A stretch of 64,000 bases of DNA from Candidatus Poseidoniia archaeon. GTDB lineage: Archaea > Thermoplasmatota > Poseidoniia > MGIII > CG-Epi1. Below are positions 15,505 through 50,002 of this stretch, piece by piece. The first letter of the stretch is position 1, and each line of letters starts with the position of its first letter. Below the pieces are notes generated by a model. That model did no database searches and had not been told where the DNA came from. It worked only from the letters and a program-made list of their open reading frames with translations. The position numbers and the translations under genes were made by a program. The DNA is taken from positions 35,517 through 99,516 of the forward strand of contig JASMLC010000005.1 in the NCBI GenBank assembly GCA_030748895.1, in the 5' to 3' direction.

Positions 15505-15528
15505 CCAGCGCCTGCTCGACGGCAGGCA

Positions 15529-15603
15529 GCCCCGTGGTGTAGCGGTCCAGCATGCAGGCCTTTGGAGCCTGTGACCCAGGTTCGAATCCGGGCGGGGCTA
15601 CCA
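15529..15603 (+). tRNA. tRNA-Gln (anticodon TTG), CCA encoded
   Basis: Acceptor AGCCCCG/CGGGGCT; anticodon arm CAGGC-CTTTGGA-GCCTG; T loop GGTTCGAATCC. The 5' half is near-identical to known archaeal tRNA-Gln. One A:G mismatch in the T stem. Confidence 0.75.
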
Positions 15604-16071
15604 CTTTAAGTCTGACCCACAAACAACTTAAGATGGTTGCAAACATTCCAAATCTAGGAGCGTCTCCTTCGTGAAGGATGGTGCTCCCGGACCGCCTTCG
15701 CCCTCTACGGTCATTTCAAGGAAAGAAGTGCGGGCTCATGCCAAATCATTGAGAGAATTCCGGTCGAAGTACAAGGATATCGTTCCGAAATATGATGCAC
15801 TTGAACAGGTAAGACAGTGATGGAATGATTCAATTATGGGTTCTTTATTTGGAGACTCTATCGAAGAGAGGGGGCCTACATGGAGGGTGCAGACCTGACG
15901 GGCGCCGACCTAGGGTTAAAATAGGTTGGGGCACTGTGGATATTGGCAGTTTATATATAGACAATCGTAGATACATTTTGCATCGCCCCGAATGGACTTT
16001 GACTATGTCATAGAGTGACGGGGAGAGGCGGTGCTGGGTGCGGTAACGCTACCCGATTTAGGGCGGTAGGT

Positions 16072-16088
16072 CTATTATATATATTGCG
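16072..16088 (+). promoter_or_regulatory. TATA-like box (TTATATATAT) ~25-30 nt upstream of the first island gene, second copy of a duplicated AT-rich motif
   Basis: Seen in sequence; a GGAAAGG Shine-Dalgarno-like stretch also precedes the ATG at 16107. Confidence 0.35.
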
Positions 16089-16106
16089 ATACATTGCAGG
16101 AAAGGT

Positions 16107-17276
16107 ATGGATAGACCAAAAACGCTCGAAGGATGGGGAAATCAGCCACTGGAAGAAATTCTGTGGCTCTGTCAGGAAACCATAGAAGATATCGAAGTAA
16201 CAACGGTTAAACGCTGGCGGGAAGCGGGCGGAAAAGTACTGGGCCACTTCCAGGTATATTTCCCAGAAGAAATAGCCCATGCTGCTGGCATGCTGCCTAT
16301 GAAGATGTTTGGAGCTTCTGTGGAACCCCGTGAAGCAGATAGCAGATTTGGATCCTTTTTATGTTCGATTTTGAAAACAAATCTGGAACAGGTCCTTTCC
16401 GGCAGGGTGGAAATAGATATGTTCGTCACACATCCTATTTGTGATGCCGCCCGAAATCTGGCCCCAATTTGGGGGCGGAATTTTGATTACCCTTGCCAAA
16501 TTCTTTATCTTCCCCAGAACCCGAACTCTAGTCATTCCGTTCAATATCTGAAAGAAGAGTATGAAAGAATCCAGGGTGTAATCGAAGGAGTTGCGGGCAG
16601 GAAAATAACAAAGGATGACTTGCGAAATTCTATTGCTGTTTTTAACAAAAACCGAGCCTTACTCCGAAAGTTATATGCGATAAAAAGGGAAAGGCCTTGG
16701 CTCATTACTATCAATGAAGCATACGTCTTAGTGGCTTTAGGTGGCTTGATTCCACGGGAAGAACATAATGAATTACTCGAAGCAGTAATTCCTCTAATTG
16801 AGAAGAGAGATGCCCGTGAACAGGATCGCATTCGGGTTGTTTTTGAAGGTGGTTTCTGTGAACAGCCACCACTGGACATGTTGAGGACTATCGGCAGGTC
16901 ATGTTACGTAGTTGATGATGACCTGTTAATTGGAATGCGATACATACTCGAAGATATTGATGCTGGTGATAATCCGTTAGAGGCGATGGCTGAAGCCTAT
17001 ATCAATAACTCATCCTACAGCCCCGTGCAACATGATTTGCGTAAACCGAAAGAAAAGATGTTGAGAGAAAGGTTTGAAAATACGGATGCAGAAGCTGTGA
17101 TTATAACTGCAGCAAAAATGTGCGAACCTGGTCTAGAGGAACAGGTCACTTATACTCAGGAGCTCGAAAAGGATGACACCCCCTATTTTGTGAGCGAATT
17201 TGAGGAAAATATGTCCAGTTTTGACCATTTGGAGATTCAGCTAGAAACGTTCGTAGAGAACCTGATGTTTGATTGA
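16107..17276 (+). CDS. benzoyl-CoA reductase / 2-hydroxyacyl-CoA dehydratase family subunit, BcrC/BzdN-like
   Basis: 389 aa, HGD-D family. First gene of a C-B-A-D-ordered cluster. Confidence 0.7.
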
Positions 17277-18585
17277 GGTGAAAATGAATAATGTAACTAA
17301 AAAAGATATAGTAGGTCGTGGTACCCGGGAAGGGGCTGCTCTTTTTAGAGACTGGTTTCAGGATTTGACGCAGAAGGCCGAAGATGACGAGACTGCAGCC
17401 TATGTTTTTGTCATGGGCAGCATTGCAGAAATACTCCGTGTATTTGATATGCCTATGGTGTTTCCAGAAATTAATTCTCTACAGACTGCTGTTCGCCATG
17501 TAGCAGACGACTTTCTGAATACAGCAGAGGATTATGGGTATTCTCCAGATATTTGCGGATACGTTAAAGCGGATTTTGCAATGCAAATGCAGAATGGGAA
17601 TCACCCCATGGGACGCATACCCAAGCCAGGAATTGCCGTACTGACCAATGCCTGTAATACATATTTCAAATGGGCTGAAATCTGGGAGCGGATTTATGAC
17701 ATTCCCATGGTTTCAATAGATGTGCCAGCAACGCGTGAAGCGGGAACGAGGACCTGGCCGGGAGATGAACAATTTGAGCGAGAAAAGAAATATGTAAAAG
17801 TTCAACTTGAAGAACTGATAGAAACGTGTGAGGAGATAACAGGAAAGAAATTCGATGTCGATCGTCTCAGGGAAGTTCTAGGACACGCTAACACAATGAG
17901 TCGCTGTTGGAAACGAGTACTAGAACTGAATCAGAGCAGCCCTTCTTTGTTCAATGCCCTTACTGATGGAACTGTATATCTAGGGATGTCCAATGTGTTT
18001 CGAGGGACTCCCGAAGGAGCCCGGTTTTTTGAAAGGCTGGTAGAAGAAATGGAGTATATGGCTGCAAATGGCATAGGAACCCTTACCGATGAGAAATATA
18101 GATTGAGTTTCATTGGTGTTCCTTGTTATCCAATCTTCAGACGTTTCAATGAAATGTTCACGAAATGGGGTGGGTCGTTTGTCATGTCATCCTATCTCTG
18201 GTTCGCTTCAGGTGGGACGAATATAGGCGTACAGTATGATTTGGACGACCCTTTTGATTCGCTGGCGGAAGGTGTGTTGATTAGTGTTCGTGACGCCATG
18301 GATTCTATGTTTCACCCCGAACTTACGGTTCTTGCACAATCTGATGAGTTCAATGTCGATGGCGTGGTGTACCACCCCATAAAAAGTTGTAGAACGACTT
18401 CGACAGGTATGGCAGACAATCGTCGCATGTTAATGGAAAAAAGTAATTTGCCGAGTCTATTTATTGAATCAGACATGATGGATTCAAGAGTTGTCGGAGA
18501 AGCCCAGATGAAAAACCGTATTGATGCTTTTTTTGAGGGATTGGCGTCACGGAAGGCAAGGGCTACAGTAGAGGGAGGAGGATAA
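17269..18585 (+). CDS. benzoyl-CoA reductase / 2-hydroxyacyl-CoA dehydratase family subunit, BcrB/BzdO-like
   Basis: 438 aa, HGD-D family; 8-nt overlap with upstream gene. Confidence 0.7.
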
Positions 18586-18586
18586 T

Positions 18587-19393
18587 ATGGCATTAGCTGC
18601 TGGAGTGGATGTGGGTTCTACACAAACAAAAGCTGTTATTATCAATGAGGACCTGAAAATCATCGGCAGGGCATTGATTGATACGGGTGCTAACGTGGTA
18701 CAAGCTGCCGAGAAGGCATACTTCAAAGCACTGAATGAGAGCAAACGTCGGGAAGAAGAAGTTGCCTATGTCATTGGAACTGGTTATGGGCGGTATAAAG
18801 TAACATTTGGGAATACGCAGGTTACGGAAATCAGTTGCCATGGCCGAGGTGCCGTGCATATGTACCCAGAAACAAGGACGGTTCTAGATATGGGTGGACA
18901 GGATACTAAAGCAATCAGTGTTAGTGAAATCGGCGAAATTGTAGATTTTTGTATGAATGACAAATGTGCTGCTGGTACTGGCCGTTTCTTGGGAGCAGCT
19001 TCCATGGCTCTAGATATTCCCCTGAATGAACTAGGCCCCACAGCCTTGAAATCAAAAAAACCAGTTAAGATTAGCACTACATGTACTGTGTTTGCGGAAT
19101 CGGAAGTGTTGTCCTGGCTTGGCAAAGGCAAGAAAATTGAGGACATCCTGTTAGGTGTCCACCAATCGATATCCTCTCGTTCACTTGCTTTATTAAGACG
19201 GGTCGGATTTAACGATGAAATTACTTTTACAGGTGGCGTGGCGAAAAATATTGGTATGGTTGAAGTCTTGACTGCAGGCCTTGGGATGAAAATGAACGTG
19301 AGTGATGAATCACATTACATGGGAGCTCTGGGAGCTGCACTATTCGCTATGGATCACATTATGGAAAGCCGAATACCTGTAGGTGAAACATGA
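18587..19393 (+). CDS. BadF/BadG/BcrA/BcrD-type ATPase (acetate/sugar kinase fold, [4Fe-4S]-bridging reductase ATPase subunit)
   Basis: [12 protein letters not shown]-terminal ATPase motif; DKCAAGTG motif; 268 aa. Confidence 0.8.
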
Positions 19394-20193
19394 AACATGT
19401 CATTGGAGTAGATGTGGGTTCTACATACACCAAGGCTGTGATTCTTTCCCCTGAAAAAAAGGTGATTGGAAAAGCGATGGTACAAACTGGTTTCAAATTG
19501 GATAAGGCAGCCGAAAAGGTATTCGATCAAGTTCTGAAAGAATCGGGTCTGGCCAAAGAAAAGATCGGATATGCCATTTCAACGGGATACGGCCGACATA
19601 TGGTACCTTATCGAGACATTACAGTCACTGACTTAACAGCTACAGCGCGGGGCACAAATTTTTTCTTCCCTGAAACCCGGACTGTACTAGATATCGGCGG
19701 GCAGACTATGAAGGCCAGTCGCCTAGATGAAAAAGTAAAAGTCAGGTCTTTCCGCCTTAATGACAAATGTGCAGCCGGAACGGGAGCGTTTCTCGAAAAA
19801 ACAGCCCGATATATGGGATATGGAACAGAGGAAATCGGCCCCCTCGTTGATACATCAAAGGAGCAAGTTCCCATATCTGGAGTTTGTGCCGTGTTCGCGG
19901 AGTCTGAAGTAATTAATCAATTGTCTTTGGGCTCAGCACCCTCAGATATCATGTTTGGAGCAATGACCTCATTGGTAAAACGTGCAATACAGTTATTGAA
20001 ACGAGTCAAAATGGAATCACAGGTCACACTTACTGGTGGTATTATGCGATTTGGGACGATGGTGAATGTACTAACAGAAAACGTAGATGAAAAAATCAAT
20101 GTACCTGACGGAGACATGGTTCAGTTCACGACCGCGCTCGGTGCTGCAACACTGGCCCTACAACGCCTAGAGAAAGTGGGGGCATCTGCATGA
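19390..20193 (+). CDS. BadF/BadG/BcrA/BcrD-type ATPase, second subunit
   Basis: [11 protein letters not shown]; DKCAAGTG; 267 aa; ATGA overlap with upstream gene. Confidence 0.8.
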
Positions 20194-20429
20194 GCGAACT
20201 TTGCGGCATGGCAGATTCTCCGCGAGACGAGAGATTAAAGGCGAAAGGATGGGCAAGGCAATTTACCTGTGGGGAACCACGTTTGACTGAAGCATGCGAA
20301 CTGTTTGAGTCTATGGGAAAGAAAATTCATTTAGAATCAATGGCAAAGGAGGACCAACCCATGGGAGCTTCCTGTGATGCTTGTTTAGCCGGCTGTGGTG
20401 ACGAAATGAAAACAATCTGGGTTCGGTAA
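20190..20429 (+). CDS. small Cys-rich protein of unknown function (6 Cys; C-terminal CDACLAGC)
   Basis: 79-aa ORF translationally coupled (ATGA) to the second ATPase. No canonical CxxCxxCxxxCP ferredoxin motif. Confidence 0.4.
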   Translation: MSELCGMADSPRDERLKAKGWARQFTCGEPRLTEACELFESMGKKIHLESMAKEDQPMGASCDACLAGCGDEMKTIWVR

Positions 20430-20453: not shown

Positions 20454-21665
20454 ATGGTAGGATTAAAGACAGTATTTGACATATTCGCATTTTATGATGA
20501 TGTGAAGGCCAGCGGGAAAAAAATAGCTTGGTGTTCCGCATTTGCCCCCACTGAAGTCCTTATGGCAATGGATATTATCCCTGTATACCCTGAAAACCAT
20601 GCTGCAATACTGGGCGCCCTATCTCCTGATAGAAACCCTGACAATCCGTACAGCCAAGATTCTATCAAATTATCTGAGGCAAGTGGGTTAAGCTCACCCA
20701 TACTATGTAAATATGCCCTCAGTGATATCGGGATACTCCTAGGAGATGTAGCCTCTCCCATCCACGGCCTCCCCGAACCGGATATGTTTTATGCCTGCAA
20801 CAGCCAATGTTCAGTTGTGGAACGGTGGGGCAATGAGGTCCAGAAAATATTTTCACAGCAAAACAAAGATGTCCCTCATTATGTACTGCGGGCACCGCCT
20901 CTGGTAAGAAAAGAAGAGCATTCACCAGAGGAATTACAGCATTTTAAAGAGAAAATCGAACAACACATAAAGGAAATATGTGACCGTTTTGAATTGAACT
21001 ATAATGAAGAAAAACTAAATGAAATTGTAGAAGAAGCAGACAAGGCCAATCGATTATGGCAGAAATGTCTTGAACTAGCGAAAAGAAAACCGACACCATG
21101 GACCAATATTGATGCTTTTACTGCTATGGCACCAATTGTAGTCGCACGAGGAACAAAAATCTGTACGGATTATTACCGCTCGCTTCTGTCTGAACTGGAG
21201 GAAAGAATTGAAAAAGGAATCCAAGCGGTGCCCGATGAAAAAATAAGACTTGTCTGGGACGCAATCCCCATCTGGCCGCGAAAAAACTGGCTGGCAAAAT
21301 ACTGCGAAGAAAACAATGTTGCTTTTGTAGCCAGTACATACACACATAGTTGGTGGTTCAATTTTGACGCAAATCATGCAATGGACTCTCTAGTGAGAAG
21401 ATACGCATGGAATACCATGAATCGTTCAAAAGACTGGATTTTGAATTGGACCATCAATATGGTCAAGGAATATCAGGCAGATGGGATTGTTGCTCATTGG
21501 AACAACAGTTGCAGCATTTGGAACAGTTATGTTAAACGCCGACTTCCGGGATATGAAGCGGCAGGGATCCCCACTGTAATGATTGAGGCAGATATGGTAG
21601 ATGCACGATTCTTTGATGAAGCAAAAATCACTGAGCAACTGGATAATTTTGTTCAATCATTTTAA
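20454..21665 (+). CDS. 2-hydroxyacyl-CoA dehydratase / benzoyl-CoA reductase family subunit (HGD-D family)
   Basis: 403 aa, HGD-D family fold; paralog of the 16107 and 23402 products. Confidence 0.65.
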   Translation: MVGLKTVFDIFAFYDDVKASGKKIAWCSAFAPTEVLMAMDIIPVYPENHAAILGALSPDRNPDNPYSQDSIKLSEASGLSSPILCKYALSDIGILLGDVASPIHGLPEPDMFYACNSQCSVVERWGNEVQKIFSQQNKDVPHYVLRAPPLVRKEEHSPEELQHFKEKIEQHIKEICDRFELNYNEEKLNEIVEEADKANRLWQKCLELAKRKPTPWTNIDAFTAMAPIVVARGTKICTDYYRSLLSELEERIEKGIQAVPDEKIRLVWDAIPIWPRKNWLAKYCEENNVAFVASTYTHSWWFNFDANHAMDSLVRRYAWNTMNRSKDWILNWTINMVKEYQADGIVAHWNNSCSIWNSYVKRRLPGYEAAGIPTVMIEADMVDARFFDEAKITEQLDNFVQSF

Positions 21666-21673
21666 TTGATTAA

Positions 21674-23398
21674 ATGGAAGTAGCAGATAAAATATATAAG
21701 AGCGAAATTGATTTAATGAAATTTCCGCAGAATCTGGCGGTAATGCTTAATCAAAATGGCGAAAATTTTTCAAGCTCAGCCGTTTATCAAGAACCAAGAA
21801 ATGGTGAATATAAAGTATTAACCTGGTCTCAATTTGTTAGAGATATTTCAGCTATTCAAGAATATCTACGTTCCATGGGGCTTAAGCAGGGTGATAGAAT
21901 TGCCATTCTATCGCGCAATTGCCAGGAAATGCTAGAACTGGAGTTGGCTGTTATGGCTATGGGTGCTATTTCAGTTCCCATTTTTGCAGGGTATCCAGAT
22001 GATCAGGCTAATCGTCTGCTGGATTTTTGTAACCCGACATTTGCAGCAGTAGCTGATAATATTCAATATGCAAAAATCAAGACTCCCGAATCATTGCGAA
22101 AAATCATTCATTTTTCTGGCGATGAAGGAAAATTTGGTTCAAACTCCATCTCTTTCGGGGATATGGTTTCTCATTATATTGGCGTTACGGATGTTACCGG
22201 GTTAGATATCCCGGCTGACACTGTATCATTGATGATGTACACTTCCGGTACTATGGGAAGGCCCAAATGTGTACAGTTGACTCACGGAAATATTCTATCG
22301 CAGCAGGCGGCTATGAAGGCCTTGTGGGATTTGAATCAAGAAGACAGATTCCTGTCCTACCTTCCGTGGCACCATAGTTTTGGCGGAATTTTTGAGAAAT
22401 TCGCTGCAATTGTGAATGGGGCAACTCTATCTCTTGAAAATGGATATGGTAAAGATATTAGTACCCTTTTAAAAAACTGGAACCATGTACGGCCAACGGT
22501 ATTTTTCAGCGTCCCTCGTATTTACCAAGAGATCGCTATCAGGGCCACGCAAGATCCGGCTATAGAGAAAACGATTTTTCATGATGAACTACGTTTCGTC
22601 TTTACGGCAGCAGCTGCCCTGCCCAAAAATATAGCTGATCTCTTTGCAAACTATGGAGTGCCAGTCATCGAGGGATGGGGATTGACTGAAACTTCTCCCT
22701 GTTGTACCACGACTGACCCAAATATTGAGAGAGAAACTGGGGTTGTGGGCAAGCCGATTCCTGGTGTATCTGTGAGAATTGCCTCTGATGGGGAAATACT
22801 GGTTAAAGGTCCGAATGTAATGGCCGGATACTACAGCAATTCTGAAGCCACTACTGAAGTGATCGAGGAAAGTGGATGGTTTCACACAGGCGACATAGGG
22901 GAATACACAGACACTGGCCTGAAACTCATCTCCAGGAAAGGCAGGATATTCAAGTTGATTAATGGTGAAAACGTGGTCCCCACGGAAGTTGAAAATCTGA
23001 TTTCAAAGGATTGTGCATATCTATCGCACACCTTTTTGAGTGGTCGCAACCGTGATTATCCAGTAATTCTTCTTTTCCCAAATAAGAATGTGTTTTCCCA
23101 AAAACCTGATAAGTCTATGTTATGCGATAGGTGTCAATGCCCATCAAATATGCTGGAATATTTAAAGTGTTTAAGCGAATGTCTAAAGATATGGAACCAG
23201 GCTATTACACCGAAATATGCTCGTTACAAAAAAGCGTTGGTACTTGACTATGAACTGACTATCGAGAATGAAGAACTGACTCCTTCAATGAAGCTTTCTC
23301 CAAAAGTAGTGGAGAATATCTTTCAAGATGATATCGCCTCTCTCTACGAATCTGAAAAACCAATATCTAAAAAGGCATATGTGATTAATCTGGAATAG
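21674..23398 (+). CDS. AMP-dependent acyl-CoA synthetase/ligase
   Basis: YTSGTMGRPKCVQLTHGNI (AMP-binding motif I), GWGLTETS, FHTGDIG..GRIFKLINGENVVP motifs; 574 aa. Confidence 0.85.
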   Translation: MEVADKIYKSEIDLMKFPQNLAVMLNQNGENFSSSAVYQEPRNGEYKVLTWSQFVRDISAIQEYLRSMGLKQGDRIAILSRNCQEMLELELAVMAMGAISVPIFAGYPDDQANRLLDFCNPTFAAVADNIQYAKIKTPESLRKIIHFSGDEGKFGSNSISFGDMVSHYIGVTDVTGLDIPADTVSLMMYTSGTMGRPKCVQLTHGNILSQQAAMKALWDLNQEDRFLSYLPWHHSFGGIFEKFAAIVNGATLSLENGYGKDISTLLKNWNHVRPTVFFSVPRIYQEIAIRATQDPAIEKTIFHDELRFVFTAAAALPKNIADLFANYGVPVIEGWGLTETSPCCTTTDPNIERETGVVGKPIPGVSVRIASDGEILVKGPNVMAGYYSNSEATTEVIEESGWFHTGDIGEYTDTGLKLISRKGRIFKLINGENVVPTEVENLISKDCAYLSHTFLSGRNRDYPVILLFPNKNVFSQKPDKSMLCDRCQCPSNMLEYLKCLSECLKIWNQAITPKYARYKKALVLDYELTIENEELTPSMKLSPKVVENIFQDDIASLYESEKPISKKAYVINLE

Positions 23399-23401
23399 AA
23401 A

Positions 23402-24601
23402 ATGGCTAGACTCGAATCACAAAAAAGACTGAAAGAAGTTCTGAAAGATTACTATACGGGAATGAAATCTCCGATAGCTTGGTGCACTAGTGCTGGGCCG
23501 GCGGAGATACTGCGGGCTCTTGGATTTGAGGTGTATTTCCCAGAAAATCATGGTGCCTTTCTGGGAGCGTCACGCACAGCTGAAAAATACATTCCACGTG
23601 CTCATCAGGCAGGTTTTGACGGTGAAATCTGCTCCTATCTTACGGCAGACATTGGTGCTTGGTTGATGAAAGAGACTCCCCTGACAAAAGTGTATGGTCT
23701 GAAATCCATTCCCGAACCTGATATTATAGTGTACAACACAAATCAGTGCAGGGAAGTGTCCGAATGGTTCAACTTTTTTGGTCGTGAATATAACTGTCCT
23801 GTGGTCGGAATATATCCGCCACGCTATTTAGAGGAAGTTTCAGAAGCTGATGTAGATAATGTAACGGCTCAATTAAGGGGTCTGATTTCCGTTGGAGAAG
23901 AAATTATTGGAAAACCTTTGGATTATCAGAAACTGTCGGAGACACTTGCACTGAGTTTTGAAGGTTCGAAACTCTGGAAAAAAATGCTGGAAACTGCGAG
24001 CCAGACGCCAGCACCACTAACATTTTTTGATGGATGTATTTTAATGGCTCCTATTGTTATCCTGCGTGGAACGGAGATATGTGTTGATTTCTATAGAGAA
24101 GCGTTGACGGAACTTGAGGAATTAGTTGCAAGAAACCAAGGTGCCGTCCCTGATGAGAAAGTGAGAATTTACTGGGAAGGCATGCCGGTCTGGGGACGTT
24201 TAAGAAACCTGGCCGAGCTTTTCGCCGAAAATAATACTGCTGTGGTGGCCTCAACCTACTGCAATAGCTGGGTATTCGATGATTTTGACCCGGAAAGGCC
24301 TTTGGAATCTATGGCTTATGCGTATACTCAAATTTTCATTAACAGGGGAGAAAATGCAAAGCTAGAAGTGATGAAGAATTTGATGAAAACCTTCAGAGTT
24401 GACGGCGTCGTATTTCACGATTCAAAAACTTGTTTCAACAACGCGAACAGTCGTTTTGGCTTGCCTCAACGAGTTGAAGAAGCTACAGGCAAGGATAGCA
24501 TATCCTTCGATGGAGACTTAGTGGATTTGAGATTCTTTTCCGATGGTCAGACACGAACAAAACTTGAAACATTCATCGAACAACTGAAATTCAAGAAATA
24601 G
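23402..24601 (+). CDS. 2-hydroxyacyl-CoA dehydratase / benzoyl-CoA reductase family subunit (HGD-D family)
   Basis: 399 aa; same family as 20454; the two are separated by the CoA ligase gene. Confidence 0.65.
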   Translation: MARLESQKRLKEVLKDYYTGMKSPIAWCTSAGPAEILRALGFEVYFPENHGAFLGASRTAEKYIPRAHQAGFDGEICSYLTADIGAWLMKETPLTKVYGLKSIPEPDIIVYNTNQCREVSEWFNFFGREYNCPVVGIYPPRYLEEVSEADVDNVTAQLRGLISVGEEIIGKPLDYQKLSETLALSFEGSKLWKKMLETASQTPAPLTFFDGCILMAPIVILRGTEICVDFYREALTELEELVARNQGAVPDEKVRIYWEGMPVWGRLRNLAELFAENNTAVVASTYCNSWVFDDFDPERPLESMAYAYTQIFINRGENAKLEVMKNLMKTFRVDGVVFHDSKTCFNNANSRFGLPQRVEEATGKDSISFDGDLVDLRFFSDGQTRTKLETFIEQLKFKK

Positions 24602-24609
24602 ATTAAATT

Positions 24610-25578
24610 ATGGAAGGAAATATAGTGAAGATATCTGATGCTCAATTAAGGATAGGTATAATCGGTGGAGGACCAGCCGGGCTCACATTAGCAGCCCATC
24701 TAATTGAAGCTGGAGCAATGGTAGTTGTGTGTGACCTTATAACTGAAAAAATTGATGTGATAAAAAAATCCGGCATTAAACTGACAAAGACAATCAACAA
24801 ACATGTAAGCATCAACCATGTCTGCTGCACTATTTCTGAACTGGGTGATTATGACCTAGACGTGATTGTAATATCTGTAAAAACCACAGCACTAAATGCT
24901 GTTGTTGAGCAATTAACTCGGATTGATTCCGGAAAAATGTTTGTCATGTGTGCTCAGAATGGCATTGATAACGAATTAATCGCTGCAGAGGCCTTCGGTA
25001 AAGATAGAACCTTGCGGATGGTCATAAATTATGCAGGTGAAATGAAAAATTTGAATACGGTCAAAGTGACCTTTTTCCATCCGCCTAATCACATAGCCGC
25101 TTTAACAGCAAATGGAAAAGAGATTTCAGAAGCAATTAGAAATTTATTGAATTCTGTGAAACTGAAGACAGAAATTTCGGGACCGGATAAGATAAGGAAT
25201 TATGTCTGGGAAAAATCCATTTTGAATGCTTCATTGAGCTGTTTATGCGCCATATCACATTGCACTATGAAAGAGGTGATGACTTTTCCTGAAACAAAGA
25301 ATCTAGTCGCAGGAATCATTGATGAATCTATCATGGTTGCGGAAAAGGAAAAGATAGAGATACGGAATGGTTTTCGAAGAGATTGTATTCTTTACCTGGA
25401 AAAGGCAGGCAATCACAAGCCCTCTATGCTAATCGATATCGAGAATGGGGCAATGACCGAAATTGACCGACTAAATGGGAAAATTCTGGAGTATGGATTA
25501 AAACATGGCATAGACACACCGCTGAATCGTGCCGTTACTGCGCTAATCCATCTTCAAGAAAAGAAAGAAAATGGATAA
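24610..25578 (+). CDS. ketopantoate reductase (PanE/ApbA) family 2-oxoacid reductase
   Basis: N-terminal Rossmann IGIIGGGPAGL, ApbA N and C domains; 322 aa. Confidence 0.65.
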   Translation: MEGNIVKISDAQLRIGIIGGGPAGLTLAAHLIEAGAMVVVCDLITEKIDVIKKSGIKLTKTINKHVSINHVCCTISELGDYDLDVIVISVKTTALNAVVEQLTRIDSGKMFVMCAQNGIDNELIAAEAFGKDRTLRMVINYAGEMKNLNTVKVTFFHPPNHIAALTANGKEISEAIRNLLNSVKLKTEISGPDKIRNYVWEKSILNASLSCLCAISHCTMKEVMTFPETKNLVAGIIDESIMVAEKEKIEIRNGFRRDCILYLEKAGNHKPSMLIDIENGAMTEIDRLNGKILEYGLKHGIDTPLNRAVTALIHLQEKKENG

Positions 25579-26332
25579 ACATCATCTTGGCATAGACTTG
25601 GGTTCCTCTTACACAAAGTTTGTTGTCACGAACGGTTCAAATGATTTGGTAATCAAAAGTGTAATTCCTTCACTAAGCAGGAACAAGAATCTATTCAAGA
25701 GCCAGTTGTCTAAAATAAAAGAACAATTCTCAATCAATGGAGTCTGTACAACTGGATACGGTCGAGATAGTTTTCAGGGGGATGTGAAAAAAACGGAATT
25801 GATTTGTGCATCGGCAGGAATATCTGTGCCATACCCTAAGCATAAATGCATCGTTGATATTGGTGGCGAAGATATTAAAATTATAGAGAGTGGACCGTCG
25901 GGAGAAGTAATTAATTTCCACATGAATGATAAATGTGCTGCGGGTACAGGGACCTTTATCACTGAAATTGCTGAGAGGGCCGAACTTAAAATTGATGAAA
26001 TGAGCGAACTTGCCCAGTTGGCCACCGGCTCGAAGATAATCAACAGTTTCTGCACAGTATTCGCCAAATCAGAGATTCTAGGATGGAAATTCAATGATAT
26101 CCCCATCGAGGAAATATCCAAGGGAATATATCTGTCAATCGTAAACCGGATCCGAAAACTTCCTGTCAAAACCGATATTCCTGTAATTCTTTGTGGAGGT
26201 GTAATAGCATTTCATCCATACCTGCAGGAACTGTTAACGAAAGAATTTTCGGCTGAGGTGGAAACCGCGCCCAATCCCCAATTTGCGGTTGCATTAGGCG
26301 CATCTGTTCTGGCACAGAAAGAATGTTCCTGA
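25571..26332 (+). CDS. BadF/BadG/BcrA/BcrD-type ATPase (HgdC-like activase)
   Basis: IDLGSSYTKFVV; DKCAAGTG; 253 aa; third paralog in the island. Confidence 0.75.
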   Translation: MDKHHLGIDLGSSYTKFVVTNGSNDLVIKSVIPSLSRNKNLFKSQLSKIKEQFSINGVCTTGYGRDSFQGDVKKTELICASAGISVPYPKHKCIVDIGGEDIKIIESGPSGEVINFHMNDKCAAGTGTFITEIAERAELKIDEMSELAQLATGSKIINSFCTVFAKSEILGWKFNDIPIEEISKGIYLSIVNRIRKLPVKTDIPVILCGGVIAFHPYLQELLTKEFSAEVETAPNPQFAVALGASVLAQKECS

Positions 26333-26401: not shown

Positions 26402-27457
26402 ATGAATACAATAAAGGCATGGCAAATGGTTGCTAAAAGCCAGCCCTTTGAGCTAGGAACGATTCCGGTCCAAAAGTTAGAAAAGAATGAGGTACTCGTG
26501 GAAGTAGCTGGCTGTGGCGTGTGTCATACGGATCTGAGTTTCTGGCATTATGGGGTCCCTACCCGTCATGAGATTCCCCTAGTCCTAGGGCATGAAATCA
26601 GCGGGACTGTTGTTGCGGGAGTATCTGACCTTATTGGCAAGCCGGTTATTATCCCTGCAGTGATGCCATGTGGGGGATGTGATCTTTGCGAGACGGGGAG
26701 AAGTAATATTTGTCAAAAACAGCAAATGCCAGGAAATGATTTTCATGGTGGATTTGCGAGTCATACAGTGGTACCAGCACAGTATCTGGCAGAAGTACCT
26801 GTTTCCGTTCTGTCAAAACACAGTCTTCCTGAACTTGCTGTAATTGCCGATGCCATTTCAACACCTTATCAGGTGATGCTAAAGAGTGGAATCCAGGAAG
26901 GTGATTTTGCAATCATAATTGGAGTTGGGGGTGTAGGGATTTATGGGGCTCAACTTGCAAGTGTTTTCGGAGGAAAAGTACTGGCACTGGACATCTCACA
27001 GGAAAAACTGGATCAACTCGGCCAAATAGGTATAGGGCAGACACTGAATATATCTGACATGGGTATAAGAGAAATAAAAAAGGCTGTAAAGGAGAAATGT
27101 CAAGAGATGGGTGCACCACCCAATCGCTGGAAAATTTACGAGATGTCTGGAACTAGAGCAGGTCAAGAGTTGGCATTTGCACTGATGGGGATTGCTAGTA
27201 CCTTATCTATTGTTGGTTTCACCATGGACAAACTAGAAGTGCGTCTTAGCAACCTAATGGCGTTTGATGCAACCTTGATTGGTACTTGGGGATGTAAGCC
27301 TGAATTATACAATAACGTTCTGGGACTAGTCGATGAGGGAAAAATTGAAATAAAACCATTTACTGAAACCTTTCCCATGTCGCAAATCAACGAAATCTTT
27401 AAAAAGACCTTGGAACACCAATTAAGCAGACGTTCGGTGATGATTCCAGATTTTTGA
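26402..27457 (+). CDS. Zn-dependent alcohol dehydrogenase (MDR) family; Had-like candidate
   Basis: GCGVCHTDL, GHEISGTV, Rossmann GVGGVG; 351 aa. Sits directly upstream of the ring-hydrolase-like crotonase. Confidence 0.75.
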   Translation: MNTIKAWQMVAKSQPFELGTIPVQKLEKNEVLVEVAGCGVCHTDLSFWHYGVPTRHEIPLVLGHEISGTVVAGVSDLIGKPVIIPAVMPCGGCDLCETGRSNICQKQQMPGNDFHGGFASHTVVPAQYLAEVPVSVLSKHSLPELAVIADAISTPYQVMLKSGIQEGDFAIIIGVGGVGIYGAQLASVFGGKVLALDISQEKLDQLGQIGIGQTLNISDMGIREIKKAVKEKCQEMGAPPNRWKIYEMSGTRAGQELAFALMGIASTLSIVGFTMDKLEVRLSNLMAFDATLIGTWGCKPELYNNVLGLVDEGKIEIKPFTETFPMSQINEIFKKTLEHQLSRRSVMIPDF

Positions 27458-27490
27458 ATAGGAACAAAAAATGAACAACAGACAAAATAA

Positions 27491-28591
27491 TTGGAGCAAA
27501 AAATGAATAACAACTTGGCAAGTCACAATCTGGTCGAAACAAATTTCAAAGAAATAATCTATGAGTCACGCCCCTGTCTGGACAATGACGGAAAGGCGGT
27601 TAATGGACTGAACAATGCATGGATTTTACTGAATAATCCTGAGCAGTATAACTCTTACACAACCGCGGCCGTGAAGGAGATTATTTTGGCATTTCGAGCG
27701 GCATCCAATGACCGCAGTGTTGTTGCAGTTGTATTCTCAGCTGTAGGCGATACGGCATTCTGTACTGGCGGAAATACAAAAGAATATGCTGAGTATTATG
27801 CAGGCAATCCACAAGAATATAAACAATATATGCGTCTGTTCAACGACATGGTTTCTGCTATTCTGATGTGTGACAAACCCGTAATCAATCGAGTGAATGG
27901 AATGCGAATCGCCGGCGGTCAGGAAATCGGAATGGCTTGTGATTTCTCGATTGCACAGGACCTGGCCCGTTTCGGGCAGGCTGGCCCGAAGCATGGTAGC
28001 GCTCCCGACGGTGGCTCAACTGATTTTCTGCATCTGTTTGTTGGTGCGGAATTGGCAATGCTTTCCTGTACAGTATGCGAACCATGGAGCGCGCACGAAG
28101 CACTACGGCATGGATTACTGTCAGAAATAGTACCTGCTCTGAAAGTTGACGGTAAGTTCATTCCAAACCCACTAGTCAGAACAGATAGATGGATCAGCAA
28201 GTGCAAGGGTGAAATCATCTTTGGCCTCCCCAGAAAAGGAAAAGCGCTGGACGAAGCAAAAGCAATACTGAAAAAGGGTGAAATAGATCTATCATTGCTT
28301 GACAGTACCGTGGAAAAAATGTGTACTAAACTGATGTTGACATTCCCCAATTGCTTGAGTAAAACCCTCAACTCCGTCCGCAAGAAAAAGCTGGAACACT
28401 GGGACAGAAACAAGGAGAGCAACCGCGATTGGCTGGCGTTAAATATGATGACAGAAGCAAAGGCTGGTTTCAGGGCATTCAATGAGGGTCAGAAAGGAAA
28501 CCGCGAAGTGGACTTCATCAAGCTACGGCAGATGCTGGCTGAAGGGCTGCCATGGGATGGCGATATGCTCAAGGCAATTTTACCCAGGTAA
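27491..28591 (+). CDS. enoyl-CoA hydratase/isomerase (crotonase) superfamily, long form; candidate 6-oxocyclohex-1-ene-1-carbonyl-CoA hydrolase (Oah/BamA-like)
   Basis: 366 aa, crotonase fold with long C-terminal extension. Size and gene context (after a Zn-ADH, near a short crotonase) match Oah. Confidence 0.55.
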   Translation: MEQKMNNNLASHNLVETNFKEIIYESRPCLDNDGKAVNGLNNAWILLNNPEQYNSYTTAAVKEIILAFRAASNDRSVVAVVFSAVGDTAFCTGGNTKEYAEYYAGNPQEYKQYMRLFNDMVSAILMCDKPVINRVNGMRIAGGQEIGMACDFSIAQDLARFGQAGPKHGSAPDGGSTDFLHLFVGAELAMLSCTVCEPWSAHEALRHGLLSEIVPALKVDGKFIPNPLVRTDRWISKCKGEIIFGLPRKGKALDEAKAILKKGEIDLSLLDSTVEKMCTKLMLTFPNCLSKTLNSVRKKKLEHWDRNKESNRDWLALNMMTEAKAGFRAFNEGQKGNREVDFIKLRQMLAEGLPWDGDMLKAILPR

Positions 28592-28672: not shown

Positions 28673-29080
28673 GTGTCTCACAGTATAACAGTTCTGAAAT
28701 CTAAATTGCACAATGCGGTAGTAACACACGCTCTCAAAGACTATGTGGGTTCTGTTGCGCTAAGCCAGGACTTGATTGATTTGGGCAAATTTCGAATTCA
28801 TGAACAAGTACACCTGTGGAACATAACACAAGGCACTCGACTGGTCACCTACGTCATGAAATATGAAGGAGAAGATAGAGGTATAATCTGTGTGAATGGT
28901 GCAGCAGCACATCTTGCTAATTCAGGAGACAAAGTTATTCTTGCTACATTTGCAGAAATAGATTCGGAGGAATCTTGGAAACCTCACGTAGTCATCATGA
29001 ATGATGAAAATCGTATTGATGAACGTGAAGAGGAAAAAGCAGAGGATTTGGATAACTATGATTTGAGGTGTGACATTTGA
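28673..29080 (+). CDS. panD: aspartate 1-decarboxylase (pyruvoyl-dependent, PanD family)
   Basis: 135 aa. The N-terminus aligns to bacterial PanD, including the self-processing Gly-Ser site (KDYVGSVALSQD vs E. coli LHYEGSCAIDQD) and the GAAAH region. GTG start. Confidence 0.75.
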   Translation: MSHSITVLKSKLHNAVVTHALKDYVGSVALSQDLIDLGKFRIHEQVHLWNITQGTRLVTYVMKYEGEDRGIICVNGAAAHLANSGDKVILATFAEIDSEESWKPHVVIMNDENRIDEREEEKAEDLDNYDLRCDI

Positions 29081-30390
29081 CAAAATCAGTACCGATACCC
29101 GAAGGGACCCTGTCCAAGATTTTTGACGAAGCTGGGTACGACTCTAACAATTTGTCAATCCGTGAGACAAGTCATTTGGCATCTCTTATAAGTAAAGAAT
29201 ACGGAATCGAATTTGTAAGGATGGAAATGGGCATTCCCAACATTCCTGCTCCTGATATCGCAAGGGAGGCTGAGAAGAAGGCTATAGATGACGGTTTACA
29301 AGGTACGTATCCGCCATTTGATGGAATCCCACAATTAAAAAAAGCTGGAAGCGATTTTGTCAAGGCATTTTTGGATTTGGATGTGAAGCCCGAACATGTA
29401 GTGCCTACAAGTGGATCATTGCAAGGTGGATACATCTCTCAAGCACTCGCGGGAAATATGCATCCGGGAAAGAATACTATATTATATCTTGACCCAACCT
29501 TTCCAGTAAGTAGGTATCAGGCCCGGTTTCTCGGATTGGAAAGTGATGGAATTGAAATGTATGATAATCGAGGATCTGAACTAGTGAATGCGGTAGAAAA
29601 ACGAATTTCTAAGGGAGATATTGGGGGAATTCTATGGTCATCACCAAACAATCCCAGCTGGTCTTGTTTAACGAAAGAAGAATTAAAAGAAATAGCCAGA
29701 ATATGTGACGATAATCAGATACTGGCAATTGAGGACCTCGCGTATTTAGGAATGGATTTCAGAAAGGACTATTCTGTACCGTACTCAGAACCATACATAC
29801 CTTCGATTGGCAAATTCGGTACCAACTGGATCACGTTAATCTCAGCGTCCAAGGCTTTCTCATTACCTGGGTCAAGATGTGCGATCGCAGTCATCTCCCC
29901 TGAGCTTACCGAACAGGAATTCGAGGGTTTGAAAAGGTTTTGTGGAAGAAACCGATTCGGCCACGCGTTTTCCCTTGGGGGCTTGTACGTAACGACCGCG
30001 GGAACTAGTCACACTGCACAATATGCCCTATCAAAAATGCTTGAAAGTGCGACCAAAGGTGATTTCAATTTTATAGACACTACTAGAATTTATGGAGAAA
30101 GGGCAAGCCATGTCAGAAAAATATTCCTGAAATACGGTTTTAAACAAGTTTATGATAAGGATATGGATGAACCGGTAGGAGACGGGTTCTATCTTACAAT
30201 GTCCTATCCTGGCTATGACGGGAATAACCTGATGATAGAATTGTTGAAGTATGGAATTTCCACAATTACTCTAAAATCGACCGGTTCAAATAGGCACGAA
30301 GGGTTGAGAATCTGCATATCTTTTGTGGACTCCGAAGACATCCCTGTTTTAGAAGATAGATTGCAAAAATTCATGGAGAACAACAATTGA
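29077..30390 (+). CDS. class I (AspC/TyrB fold-type I) PLP aminotransferase
   Basis: SASKAFSLPGSR matches the SxSKxFGLxGxR Lys motif of class I aminotransferases; 437 aa; ATGA-coupled to panD. Confidence 0.6.
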   Translation: MTKSVPIPEGTLSKIFDEAGYDSNNLSIRETSHLASLISKEYGIEFVRMEMGIPNIPAPDIAREAEKKAIDDGLQGTYPPFDGIPQLKKAGSDFVKAFLDLDVKPEHVVPTSGSLQGGYISQALAGNMHPGKNTILYLDPTFPVSRYQARFLGLESDGIEMYDNRGSELVNAVEKRISKGDIGGILWSSPNNPSWSCLTKEELKEIARICDDNQILAIEDLAYLGMDFRKDYSVPYSEPYIPSIGKFGTNWITLISASKAFSLPGSRCAIAVISPELTEQEFEGLKRFCGRNRFGHAFSLGGLYVTTAGTSHTAQYALSKMLESATKGDFNFIDTTRIYGERASHVRKIFLKYGFKQVYDKDMDEPVGDGFYLTMSYPGYDGNNLMIELLKYGISTITLKSTGSNRHEGLRICISFVDSEDIPVLEDRLQKFMENNN

Positions 30391-30402
30391 AATTAAACGA
30401 CA

Positions 30403-30441
30403 TTACCCAGGTAATCTTACATGACTGAGTTTTTCAAGCCT
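30403..30441 (+). repeat. 39-bp perfect direct repeat, right copy
   Basis: Identical to 28580-28618. Contains the ribosome-binding region and first 7 codons of the transglutaminase-like gene. Confidence 0.9.
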
Positions 30442-31104
30442 GAATTTAAACAGTACCTTCGGTCAGGTTGTTTTGTCGATAGTGATGCTCCTGCAGTAGT
30501 TGAATTTGCTCAGGCGGTGAGCTCTGGATCGGCGGAAAAGAGAGAGAAAGCAGTCAGTATCTACTACGCTGTGCGAGATACAATTCGCTACGACCCATAC
30601 AACATCGATTTAGCTCCTGAAGCTCTGACTGCCAGTTCTGTTCTGGCTAAGGGCAGAGGATTCTGCATAGTAAAAGCTAACCTACTGGCTGCCGCTGCAA
30701 GGGTGGTAGGTATCCCCAGTCGCCTCGGATATGCTAACGTACGCAACCACCTAACCACAGAGCGCCTTAACCAGTACATGAGGAGCGATGTTTTCGCCTT
30801 TCACGGTTTCACAGAACTTTACCTTGAGGGGCGCTGGGTGAAGGCAACGCCTGCCTTCAACCTCTCCCTCTGCCAGCGTTTTGACGTCAAGCCTCTGGAA
30901 TTTGACGGACAGAACGATTCCATATTTCATGAATACGATTCTCAGGGTCAACGCCATATGGAATACTTGCAGGATCTAGGTCACTATGCCGACTTACCCC
31001 GAAAACTGATGATTGCTACATTCCGAAAACATTATCCTCATCTCTACGATGGAACCGCCACCACACTCGATGGTGATTTTGAAGCAGATGCCTCTTTATC
31101 TTGA
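30421..31104 (+). CDS. transglutaminase-like superfamily protein (Cys-His-Asp core)
   Basis: GRGFCIVKANLLAAAARVVGIPSRLGYAN fits the transglutaminase-core GxCxxxAxxxxxxxRxxGIPAR signature; 227 aa. Confidence 0.6.
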   Translation: MTEFFKPEFKQYLRSGCFVDSDAPAVVEFAQAVSSGSAEKREKAVSIYYAVRDTIRYDPYNIDLAPEALTASSVLAKGRGFCIVKANLLAAAARVVGIPSRLGYANVRNHLTTERLNQYMRSDVFAFHGFTELYLEGRWVKATPAFNLSLCQRFDVKPLEFDGQNDSIFHEYDSQGQRHMEYLQDLGHYADLPRKLMIATFRKHYPHLYDGTATTLDGDFEADASLS

Positions 31105-31155: not shown

Positions 31156-31923
31156 ATGGAGAAAGTAATTACAGAGTCATTTTTTGATGGGCAGGTGGTT
31201 CGGTTTGTCCTGAATGCGCCTAAAATCAACGTACTGGATGCCGAGATGATGGCAGAATTACAGTCGGGATTGGGAACTATGGGTCACGACGTTAAGCTGA
31301 TACAGTTTATGGGAGCTGAAGATAATTTCAGTTATGGCGCATCAGTACCAGAACACACCAAAGAAAATGCTCAGGAAATGTTGATCCAGTTCCATGGACT
31401 TTTCAAAACTCTAATGCGCCTGTCGGTCCCTACAATGGCAATGGTGTCGGGACAATGTCTTGGTGGTGGAATGGAACTGGCTATTTCGTGTAACTTCCTT
31501 TTCCTAGACGAAACTGCAAGATTGGGCCAACCCGAAATTGTGTTGGGAGTATTCGCACCTCCGGCATCCTTGATTCTGCCAATGAAGGTTGGTCAGGCCA
31601 AAGCCGATGAATTGCTTCTTTCCGGCAGGAGCATGAAACCTAATGAGGTTATGTCTTCCGGTTTGGGGACGCAGCTTTTTGAGAGCCAACAATCAATGAT
31701 AGATGGTGCCAATAACTGGGTCGAAAAACACATCTTGGGAAAGAGTGCATCATCTCTGCGTTTTGCCAGCCGCGCAGCACGGACGGCATTTAACGAAAAC
31801 TTATCTGTGAGTCTGGACAAACTTGCTGAGACATACACAACCAAATTAATGGAAACTCACGATGCTAATGAAGGTATAGAAGCTTTTTTGGAGAAACGGA
31901 AGCCGAAGTGGACAAATAGTTGA
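31156..31923 (+). CDS. enoyl-CoA hydratase (short crotonase); Dch-like candidate (cyclohexa-1,5-diene-1-carbonyl-CoA hydratase)
   Basis: 255 aa crotonase fold; oxyanion-hole region GGGMELAISC. Confidence 0.65.
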   Translation: MEKVITESFFDGQVVRFVLNAPKINVLDAEMMAELQSGLGTMGHDVKLIQFMGAEDNFSYGASVPEHTKENAQEMLIQFHGLFKTLMRLSVPTMAMVSGQCLGGGMELAISCNFLFLDETARLGQPEIVLGVFAPPASLILPMKVGQAKADELLLSGRSMKPNEVMSSGLGTQLFESQQSMIDGANNWVEKHILGKSASSLRFASRAARTAFNENLSVSLDKLAETYTTKLMETHDANEGIEAFLEKRKPKWTNS

Positions 31924-47167: not shown

Positions 47168-47200
47168 ACATGAACTAACGTCACCCCTGATACCAAGATT

Positions 47201-50001: not shown

Positions 50002-50002
50002 A

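Follow-up and report, generated by a model that had tools for sequence, protein, structure and literature searches.

Ketyl-radical dehydration is known for the 2-hydroxyacyl-CoA dehydratases (PMC11971306; PMC7317905), of which HadBC/HadI from Clostridioides difficile, FldABC/FldI from Clostridium sporogenes and HgdAB/HgdC are the systems used for comparison here. In BzdO, a subunit of class I benzoyl-CoA reductase (BCR), the cluster ligands are Cys95, Cys128 and Cys380, and HadB coordinates its cluster in a like manner (PMC11971306). How aromatic amino acids are converted to benzoyl-CoA is poorly known in strictly or facultatively anaerobic bacteria other than the denitrifiers and clostridia that have been studied in depth. 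For a benzene degrader, a sequence from phenyllactyl-CoA through cinnamoyl-CoA to benzoyl-CoA with an 'unassigned dehydratase' was postulated in 2026 (PMC13416013); the dehydration step is a recognised gap. Here we describe a block of five genes (positions 20454-26332, all on the + strand) in a 64,000-nt stretch of DNA from a Candidatus Poseidoniia archaeon, the full length of which is referred to below as the window. The block is a testable candidate for this conversion; the most likely case, to which we give a probability of about 0.5, is that it encodes an ATP-primed dehydratase route leading from aromatic 2-oxo acids to precursors of benzoyl-CoA.

The five open reading frames (ORFs) were confirmed from the ORF list and from Pfam and NCBIfam matches, and are as follows:

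20454-21665, + strand: D1, 403 aa, HGD-D protein (Pfam HGD-D, E 5.7e-54)
21674-23398, + strand: LIG, 574 aa, AMP-forming acyl-CoA synthetase (AMP-binding, E 1.2e-66, and AMP-binding_C_3)
23402-24601, + strand: D2, 399 aa, HGD-D protein (Pfam HGD-D, E 1.2e-59)
24610-25578, + strand: PanE-like dehydrogenase, 322 aa (Pfam ApbA and ApbA_C)
25571-26332, + strand: ATP3, 253 aa, HgdC-type activator ATPase (BcrAD_BadFG, E 1.9e-35)

The Pfam E-values of the five genes (1e-35 to 1e-67) are well outside the range of chance. The arrangement is operon-like, since the spacers between D1, LIG, D2 and the PanE-like gene are only 8, 3 and 8 bp and the PanE-like and ATP3 ORFs overlap by 8 bp, and the block is tightly packed between a BCR-like gene set and had, oah and dch. 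A preliminary description of this DNA had listed an HGD-D subunit, an AMP-forming ligase, a further HGD-D subunit, a PanE-family reductase and a third activase; Pfam and NCBIfam bear out this gene content, ATP3 does follow two other ATPases (18587-19393 and 19390-20193), and the content fits the toolkit of a 2-hydroxyacyl-CoA dehydratase route that had been proposed from it.

Subunit type and active-site residues

To judge from profile, structure and tree comparisons, D1 and D2 are two alpha/B-type paralogs; they do not form a B/C pair as in BCR, nor do they make up a canonical dehydratase of alpha and beta subunits. By BLAST they are 33% identical to one another over their full length and each is 23-26% identical to the B-type BCR subunit of the window, while similarity of either protein to the C-type subunit of the window was not detected. 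HadB (alpha) is the top NCBIfam match of both, with 178 bits for D1 and 199.6 bits for D2 (87 and 138 bits, respectively, for BcrB), and neither protein matches the beta-, C- or N-type NCBIfam models. The nearest structure in the PDB is likewise that of the HadB alpha subunit, 3o3m_A (E 3e-40 for D1, with MbdO and BzdO next; E 4e-42 for D2, followed by MbdO at 9e-27 and BzdO at 2e-21). Profile-profile comparison with hhalign aligned D1 with D2 at E 1e-91, and D2 with the B family at 1e-79 and the C family at 7.5e-12. An AlphaFold2 model of D2 (pLDDT 80.6, pTM 0.85) gave TM-scores of 0.86-0.88 to HadB alpha, 0.83 to MbdO/BzdO and 0.77 to the double-cubane protein DCCP, and of only 0.66-0.71 to the beta-type chains HadC, MbdN and BzdN.

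The basis of this placement is hidden Markov model scores, matches in the PDB, a fold search and a rough neighbour-joining (NJ) tree whose reference sequences were confined to HadB and MbdO. There D1 and D2 are sister clades that share a separate branch within the alpha/B group, apart both from HadB and from the BCR-B clade comprising MbdO and the B subunit of the window. The preliminary description had held that a firm grouping within the BCR B/C clades would make the HGD-D pair a second BCR; by NCBIfam, PDB, fold and NJ tree alike, the pair does not fall in those clades.

Cys77, Cys116 and Cys344 together with Glu48 of D2, and Cys85, Cys119 and Cys353 together with Glu47 of D1, align with the cluster ligands and catalytic Glu of HadB/BzdO, and the catalytic Glu belongs in each case to a 'PEN' motif. 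An open-site [4Fe-4S] cluster with three Cys ligands is predicted from this alignment for D1 and D2, and D2 is probably a homodimer carrying such a cluster. The cysteines of D2 are found at positions 28, 77, 116, 132, 227, 287 and 344. Identification of D2 as a double-cubane protein was considered and rejected, as the Cys spacings of D1 and D2 do not fit the 7-Cys motif of that family and their NF040772 scores are 58-65 bits against a cutoff of 350. BzdO His131 was likewise tried as a marker to separate reductases from dehydratases and was dropped, because MbdO and the B subunit of the window also lack a His at this position.

With NCBIfam, LIG matches PRK12582 and FadD11 best but falls well short of the cutoffs, and its nearest PDB structure is feruloyl-CoA synthetase (E 2e-37). 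On these similarities LIG is placed with the long 'FAA1/FadD11-like' type and not with the canonical benzoate- or phenylacetate-CoA ligases. ATP3 matches the 'acyl-CoA dehydratase activase' model TIGR00241 with 164 bits (cutoff 125), is 30-31% identical to the two BCR ATPases of the window and carries the motifs DKCAAGTG and CTVFAKSE.

The PanE-like dehydrogenase scores 154.6 bits on TIGR00745 (the apbA_panE subfamily; cutoff 141). It was aligned, with 15 D2-linked orthologs including fused forms, to Escherichia coli PanE, the numbering of which is used here. Asn98, Lys176, Ser244 and Glu256 are kept by the window protein and by all 15 orthologs, and Lys72 and Asn180 are likewise conserved in the family. 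Of the ketopantoate-specific residues, the presence of which would have counted against the preliminary description by its own terms, Asn194 and Asn241 are absent, being replaced by Met and His, and Arg31 is replaced by Leu; the same substitutions occur in every D2-linked ortholog checked, except that position 194 is Ile in two of them. We take Asn194 and Asn241 of E. coli PanE to be ligands of the C4 hydroxyl of pantoate and Arg31 to be a ligand of the NADPH 2'-phosphate. The Met and His (motif H-x-P-S-M) are common to 3wfi, the Enterococcus faecium D-mandelate dehydrogenase; the His is also found in 2ew2 and 8wl1. Some proteins annotated as PanE are NADH-dependent D-2-hydroxyacid dehydrogenases (bioRxiv 10.1101/2024.01.05.573888), and the PanE-like protein is predicted from its residues to be an enzyme of this kind rather than a ketopantoate reductase.

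Conserved gene order and distribution

D2 is a member of a far larger family than D1. A scan of one genome per species yielded at least 580 relatives of D2, which places the module in several hundred species-representative genomes, nearly always within a benzoyl-CoA operon. The best 80 loci were tabulated against the proteins of the genomic island that holds the module (see below), and in the counts that follow the denominator is the number of loci assessable for the slot concerned. These loci derive from Marinimicrobia, Fidelibacterota, Zixibacteria, Bacteroidota, Ignavibacteria, Acidobacteria and others. The PanE-like gene lies directly after D2 in 74/76 loci, an ATPase no more than two genes from D2 in 67/72, and an acyl-CoA synthetase of either of two types directly upstream of D2 in 67/68. 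BCR-like genes are found upstream of D2 in 50/58 loci and both had and oah downstream in 49/54, and a thiolase and a FadB-like gene recur beside the module in most. The synthetase slot is filled by an AMP-forming ligase in 55/68 loci and by an ADP-forming acyl-CoA synthetase of ∼700 aa in 12/68, all Bacteroidota-type (L063, L066, L074, L078, L080, L083, L089, L094, L095, L097, L098 and L102); the latter has CoA_binding_2, Succ_CoA_lig and ATP-grasp_5 domains, and its top NCBIfam matches are ADP-forming 4-hydroxybutyrate- and 3-hydroxypropionate-CoA ligases. The swap is a non-orthologous displacement and indicates that activation of an acid at this slot is a needed step under selection.

D1 is found in none of the 80 tabulated loci, each of which has a single HGD-D gene in the module, and D2 also occurs without D1 in L018-L022. 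The conserved unit is an acyl-CoA synthetase, one HGD-D protein, a PanE-type dehydrogenase and one activator. The view that two subunits are split by the ligase finds no support in these counts or in the shared alpha type and 33% identity of the two proteins, and the order that had appeared to be an unusual interleaving is explained by D1 being a lineage-specific paralog added ahead of the conserved four-gene unit. The order D1-LIG-D2-PanE-ATP3 (variant A) is seen in the window, L001, L002 and L013. In a second arrangement, D1-LIG-PanE-had (variant B; L007/L008, 92% identity, and L011/L012, 82%), D2 and ATP3 have been lost together, which suggests that they operate as a pair. Relatives of D1 at 59-64% identity on the contigs inspected (P0035, P0069 and P0011) are solitary genes (L009, 10001-11245; L010, 10001-11203; L016, 10001-11260) from a Planctomycetes metagenome-assembled genome (MAG), a SAR324 MAG and an untitled metagenome scaffold. 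Two of them are divergently paired with an SDR gene, close to AhpC-type genes, and one follows an NRPS gene in a setting of NRPS/PKS type; no activator ATPase lies within 10 kb of any of the three.

In 30 loci the PanE-like dehydrogenase and the ATPase are fused as one protein of 616-656 aa (ApbA, ApbA_C and BcrAD_BadFG), for example at 11614-13581 of L074, where the fusion was confirmed with Pfam; a 569-aa gene of this kind is located at 9208-10917 of L018, and another is present in L019. The module also occurs apart from BCR genes: L054 carries LIG-D2-PanE-ATP3-thiolase-FadB-hydratase-AOR-ferredoxin with no BCR nearby, and the operon of L057 begins at LIG without an adjacent BCR. In six Marinimicrobia-type loci a gene for a HisC-family aminotransferase precedes MarR and the BCR genes; in L066 and L080 such a gene lies inside the module in the order D2-PanE-aminotransferase-PanE. 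The ligase, D2, PanE-like protein, ATPase, had and oah products remain 50-75% identical across loci L028-L102, whereas the BCR-like C and B proteins of the window and its nearest Marinimicrobia relatives are ∼30% identical to those of most D2 loci, and it would seem from these identities that the BCR-like reductase and the D2 module have different evolutionary histories. On plasmids of cultured bacteria, only matches of ≤26% identity to D2 were found.

Two further features of individual loci were observed. In L066 (4895-7447) and L080 (4899-7466) the BCR ATPases are followed, ahead of the synthetase, by a gene for an 851-aa protein that combines 2Fe-2S and 4Fe-4S domains with FAD/NAD(P) domains like those of GltD/NfnB; this protein is a candidate for an electron donor system that would link the reductase to NAD(P)H. 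Directly upstream of the module in the Bacteroidota locus L077 (5815-7104) are genes for a protein with a hemerythrin domain and for a regulator of the Crp/Fnr type, hinting at oxygen-responsive control.

Proposed route and its alternatives

The catalytic steps, the oligomeric state and the substrate set out below are what we infer from the gene content, subunit type, residues, synteny and fusions just described. Using NADH, the PanE-like dehydrogenase would convert a 2-oxo acid into the (R)-2-hydroxy acid, from which the ligase would make the 2-hydroxyacyl-CoA ester. ATP3 would inject one ATP-driven low-potential electron into D2, and D2 alone, probably as a homodimer lacking a beta subunit, would dehydrate the thioester to a 2-enoyl-CoA by way of a ketyl radical. 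Neighbouring FadB-like or SDR enzymes and a thiolase would then split one acetyl-CoA from the enoyl-CoA. Arylpyruvates are the probable substrates, and those derived from Phe and Tyr would give benzoyl-CoA or 4-hydroxybenzoyl-CoA. These would feed the adjacent enzymes, since benzoyl-CoA and 4-hydroxybenzoyl-CoA are the substrates of the BCR-like, 4-hydroxybenzoyl-CoA-reductase-like and dch/had/oah systems. A synthetase rather than a CoA-transferase is to be expected, because an oxidative route leaves no CoA-ester end product to recycle. D1, as a second alpha-type paralog, may widen the substrate range or stand in for D2. The route is suggested by the nearness of the alpha-type D2 to HadB, its intact Cys ligands and Glu, the active-site residues of the PanE-like protein, the synteny, the joint absence of D2 and ATP3 in variant B and the PanE-ATPase fusions, and also by the module of L054 that stands without a BCR, the HisC-family aminotransferases beside or within the module and the IOR, AOR, 4-hydroxybenzoyl-CoA-reductase-like and iaa-like genes of the island.

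Several points weigh against this route. All characterised 2-hydroxyacyl-CoA dehydratases are alpha-beta heterodimers, and the cluster of the beta subunit is thought to hold the recycled electron (PMC7317905), yet no beta-type gene was found in the module. The mean NJ distances of D1/D2 are 0.76-0.77 to HadB and 0.77-0.85 to BCR-B, so that the two are barely nearer to the former, and both carry near-invariant extra cysteines (Cys28 and Cys287 in D2; Cys27, Cys115 and Cys205 in D1) that are not present in HadB or BzdO. Variant B keeps the ligase and the PanE-like gene with D1, yet has no D2 and no third ATPase. The linkage of the module to BCR, had, oah and dch is much tighter than its linkage to aminotransferases, so that D2 may instead act inside the benzoyl-CoA pathway itself, and the ligase might be a benzoate or aryl-carboxylate ligase of that pathway. 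The fusion of dehydrogenase and activator is not foreseen by a simple pathway model. In the literature searched there was no description of the module, of a link between PanE and HAD proteins, or of a characterised enzyme of the D1/D2 lineage.

Some of these points lead to a different reading, in which D2 and ATP3 form an ATP-driven reductase or other radical enzyme acting on an intermediate of the benzoyl-CoA pathway or on a substituted benzoyl-CoA analogue, the ligase is the aromatic-acid CoA ligase of the pathway, and the function of the PanE-like protein is either separate or linked to redox chemistry. The embedding of D2 between BCR-like genes (50/58) and had/oah (49/54) would be explained, as would the failure to see any other CoA ligase in these clusters; D2 is approximately equidistant from HadB and BCR-B and has its extra conserved cysteines, an NAD-binding dehydrogenase is fused to the ATPase, and the homodimeric DCCP with its own ATPase provides a single-subunit precedent (PMC7317905). 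However, dch, had and oah cover every step after ring reduction, the PanE-like active site is complete to the carboxylate-binding Ser even in the fused forms, and Pfam detects in it neither a flavin nor an Fe-S domain by which hydride could be converted to single electrons. The DCCP 7-Cys motif is also absent (NF040772, 58 bits against 350), and L054 and L057 have no adjacent BCR, so that this reading, including the roles it gives to the ligase and the PanE-like protein, is possible but unlikely. The benzoyl-CoA pathway ends in glutaryl/glutaconyl-CoA, and the same enzyme logic would fit a link to that terminus from glutamate or 2-oxoglutarate, in which 2-oxoglutarate, (R)-2-hydroxyglutarate, its CoA ester and glutaconyl-CoA are interconverted in either direction. 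ADP-forming synthetases, which replace the ligase in 12 loci, are reversible, and an acyl-CoA dehydrogenase gene at 38944 has a sub-threshold glutaryl-CoA dehydrogenase match. An acyl-CoA dehydrogenase is not a conserved neighbour, however, an AMP-forming ligase is ill-suited to the reverse direction, and Met and His stand at the pocket positions of the PanE-like protein as they do in the D-mandelate dehydrogenase, an enzyme of the bulky-hydrophobic kind, with no extra basic residue evident; both the reaction sequence and the metabolic connection it would make have only a slim chance of being correct.

The remaining alternatives concern the relationship between D1 and D2. That they pair as subunits in a single heterodimeric dehydratase whose genes are separated by that of the ligase would accord with their presence in one tight operon with one activator and with the recurrence of the D1-ligase-D2-PanE-ATPase order in L001, L002 and L013. 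Two alpha-type proteins of 33% identity with no beta/C match do not make such a pair readily, though, and each is found without the other: D2 without D1 in 80/80 loci and L018-L022, D1 without D2 in L007, L008, L011 and L012, and D1 alone in L009, L010 and L016. A heterodimer is on this evidence improbable, although less so than the hydroxyglutarate link. Least probable is that the pair is a second class I BCR, an idea which draws on the families PF06050 and PF01869 that the module has in common with BCR subunits and on its position adjoining the BCR-like set; it is contradicted by the subunit typing, the fold and sequence being nearest to HadB alpha, by scores of 87-138 bits on the BcrB model TIGR02260 against a cutoff of 486.55, and by the lack of a C/N-type subunit and the presence of one ATPase instead of two.

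The dehydratase route can be extended to a broader proposal, which we put forward tentatively and at somewhat less than even odds, that D2-type proteins, with D1 as their sister, are a third, uncharacterised radical lineage of the BCR/HAD group that lacks a beta subunit and whose priming activator is often fused to a PanE-type dehydrogenase, and that with its synthetase this lineage provides a widespread, undescribed oxidative route to benzoyl-CoA from aryl-lactates of Phe/Tyr origin, present in Marinimicrobia, Bacteroidota, Zixibacteria and others, that has moved en bloc with the entire benzoyl-CoA pathway into a Marine Group II archaeon. If this is true, D2 would be the first 2-hydroxyacyl-CoA-dehydratase-type enzyme to be built from a single alpha-type subunit, and would bear on the electron-recycling role proposed for the cluster of the beta subunit.

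Genomic setting and comparison with known systems

The module lies in a 44.5-kb island (∼15604-60200; borders at ∼15,650 and 60,110-60,200), the genes of which are all on one strand. The G+C content is 60-71% up to ∼15,600, 40-49% from ∼15,650 to ∼60,150 and 64% beyond, GC3 is 0.80-0.89 in genes of the flanks versus 0.36-0.45 in those of the island, and the low-GC block starts directly after tRNA-Gln (15528-15603). Proteins of the flanks are named Candidatus Poseidoniia, and the flanks are accordingly ascribed to a Marine Group II archaeon. Island proteins are found at ≥90% identity in sequences binned elsewhere as Marinimicrobia, Nitrospina, Deltaproteobacteria and Scalindua, the nearest longer contigs are from Marinimicrobia/Fidelibacterota, and over 21 kb the identity between L001 and the window is 99.93%. 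A chimeric assembly was ruled out, as the left junction is present in 10/10 independent assemblies with identical IleRS and the right junction in at least seven, and because both junctions recur in this way the island is a real insertion. It has the look of a complete, oxygen-sensitive benzoyl-CoA pathway that passed recently from bacteria to archaea. No integrase ORF was found in the window, nor any att-type direct repeat between the island borders including the 3′ end of tRNA-Gln, where no same-strand shared k-mer of ≥10 nt was detected. In the literature searched, benzoyl-CoA genes are not described from Marine Group II. If the transfer is as it appears, the acquisition of oxygen-sensitive radical enzymes and a complete benzoyl-CoA pathway from bacteria would alter the view of these abundant archaea in low-oxygen water.

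At its right end the island abuts an M28-peptidase ORF that lacks an N-terminus. The M28-peptidase-like frame (60284-61060) starts within the conserved region 'GHYDA...DNAVGTATVLELAR' and persists as a 258-aa remnant in all junction-bearing assemblies, so that insertion of the island, or a linked deletion, seems to have truncated a host M28-peptidase gene. At the left end, 500 bp separate tRNA-Gln from the first island gene, and this stretch is unlike both the upstream region of the bacterial clusters (MarR and aminotransferase) and the archaeal flank. Remnants of the MarR and aminotransferase genes were sought between tRNA-Gln and bcrC and were not found, homology with the bacterial clusters starting only inside bcrC. 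Two similar AT-rich elements are located at 15900-16106, 'TTTATATATAGACAATCGTAGATACATTTTGCA' and 'ATTATATATATTGCGATACATTGCA', of which the second lies ∼30 nt before the start codon and could represent an archaeal TATA-type promoter.

Genes of the island around the module include:

16107-20193, + strand: class I BCR-like four-gene set (C-type, B-type and two small ATPases; NCBIfam)
20190-20429, + strand: small Cys-rich ORF (79 aa) after the BCR ATPases and before D1
26402-28591, + strand: had (26402; TIGR03201, 437 bits, cutoff 339) and oah (27491; TIGR03200, 578 bits, cutoff 464)
31156-31923, + strand: dch-like dienoyl-CoA hydratase (TIGR03189, 215.7 bits, under the cutoff of 292)
34306-36191, + strand: SDR and thiolase (NCBIfam/Pfam)
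50957-52975, + strand: FadB-like 3-hydroxyacyl-CoA dehydrogenase/enoyl-CoA hydratase fusion (NCBIfam FadJ/FadB)

The BCR-like set scores 240 bits on BcrC and 193 bits on BcrB, both under the equivalog cutoffs, and its ATPases 259 and 210 bits on TIGR00241. The 79-aa ORF has C-x2-C-x3-C near its C-terminus and no Pfam match, is called as a gene in public assemblies and is conserved in Marinimicrobia-type clusters (41-75% identity); its product might bind metal or transfer electrons as a small partner protein. The SDR and thiolase are candidates for the beta-oxidation steps of the enoyl-CoA product or of 3-hydroxypimeloyl-CoA. Downstream of dch the island encodes a ferredoxin and AOR, an SDR, thiolases, a B12 mutase, a CoA-transferase, a fused IOR alpha-beta (at 44636), the FadB-like protein and hydantoinase A/B, together with two xanthine-dehydrogenase-family sets that resemble 4-hydroxybenzoyl-CoA reductase. 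The presence of a class II BCR (BamB) was considered and discarded, since aldehyde:ferredoxin oxidoreductase 1aor is the best match of the AOR-family genes both in the window and in L054.

Anaerobic indoleacetate degradation in Aromatoleum is encoded by iaa genes that include the mutase IaaGH and the transferase IaaL (PMC8360864). The region 41413-56819 encodes the large subunit of a mutase and a small B12-binding subunit of 126 aa with the DxHxxG motif, as well as a family III CoA-transferase, the fused IOR, a three-subunit xanthine-dehydrogenase-family enzyme, the FadB-like protein and hydantoinase A/B, and by analogy this iaa-like set suggests degradation of tryptophan or indoleacetate to (2-amino)benzoyl-CoA. 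Between oah and dch (28673-31104) are genes for PanD (above the equivalog cutoff), a 437-aa class I/II aminotransferase (29077) and a transglutaminase-like protein, a trio found only in the window, L001 and L002 among the loci examined; a possible role is in the supply of beta-alanine or CoA. The aromatic context claimed in the preliminary description is upheld by the BCR-like, had/oah/dch, 4-hydroxybenzoyl-CoA-reductase-like, IOR, AOR and iaa-like genes. The aminotransferase at 29077, on which that claim had also relied, belongs to the trio just described, an insert seen in this lineage only; the aminotransferase that recurs with the cluster elsewhere is of the HisC family and is absent from the window.

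Set beside the known systems, the module is closest to the (R)-2-hydroxyacyl-CoA dehydratases, with which it shares superfamily and fold; of their subunits, the substrate-binding alpha chain HadB stands nearest to D1 and D2. Also alike are the three Cys and the Glu, a dedicated HgdC-type ATPase and the presence in the operon of a gene for a D-2-hydroxyacid dehydrogenase, here a predicted one. In contrast to those systems, the module has no beta subunit, and D1 and D2 form a separate lineage with extra cysteines; the acid is activated by an AMP- or ADP-forming synthetase where the known systems use a family III CoA-transferase; the dehydrogenase is of the PanE family and often fused to the activator, whereas theirs is of the D-isomer-specific 2-hydroxyacid dehydrogenase family; and the genes lie in an operon for oxidative benzoyl-CoA degradation instead of one for reductive Stickland fermentation. 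Because the beta subunit and the CoA-transferase, which are defining features, are absent, the module is not classed as a member of that family.

With the class I BCR subunits BcrB, BzdO and MbdO the module has in common the alpha/B-type HGD-D fold (TM 0.83), the positions of three Cys and one Glu and ATP-dependent electron activation by an ATPase of the BcrAD family, and D2 is encoded in the same operon as a BCR-like set. It differs in lacking a C/N-type double-cubane partner, in having one ATPase gene where BCR has two and in being slightly nearer to HadB in sequence. The predicted quaternary logic of one HGD-D protein with one homodimeric ATPase is like that of DCCP/DCCP-R from Carboxydothermus hydrogenoformans and of YjiM/YjiL, but the 7-Cys motif of DCCP, CX19CX18-19CX29CX166-170CX32-34CX32C (PMC7317905), is absent from D1 and D2, and the TM-score is only 0.77. 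The PanE-like protein resembles the PanE-family D-2-hydroxyacid dehydrogenases (3wfi and PanE of Lactococcus lactis) in fold, in the catalytic Lys, Glu, Asn and Ser, in the Met/His pair and in having no Arg31; its similarity to 3wfi is modest (E 4e-18), and it is distinguished by being encoded in a radical-enzyme operon, where it is often fused to the activator.

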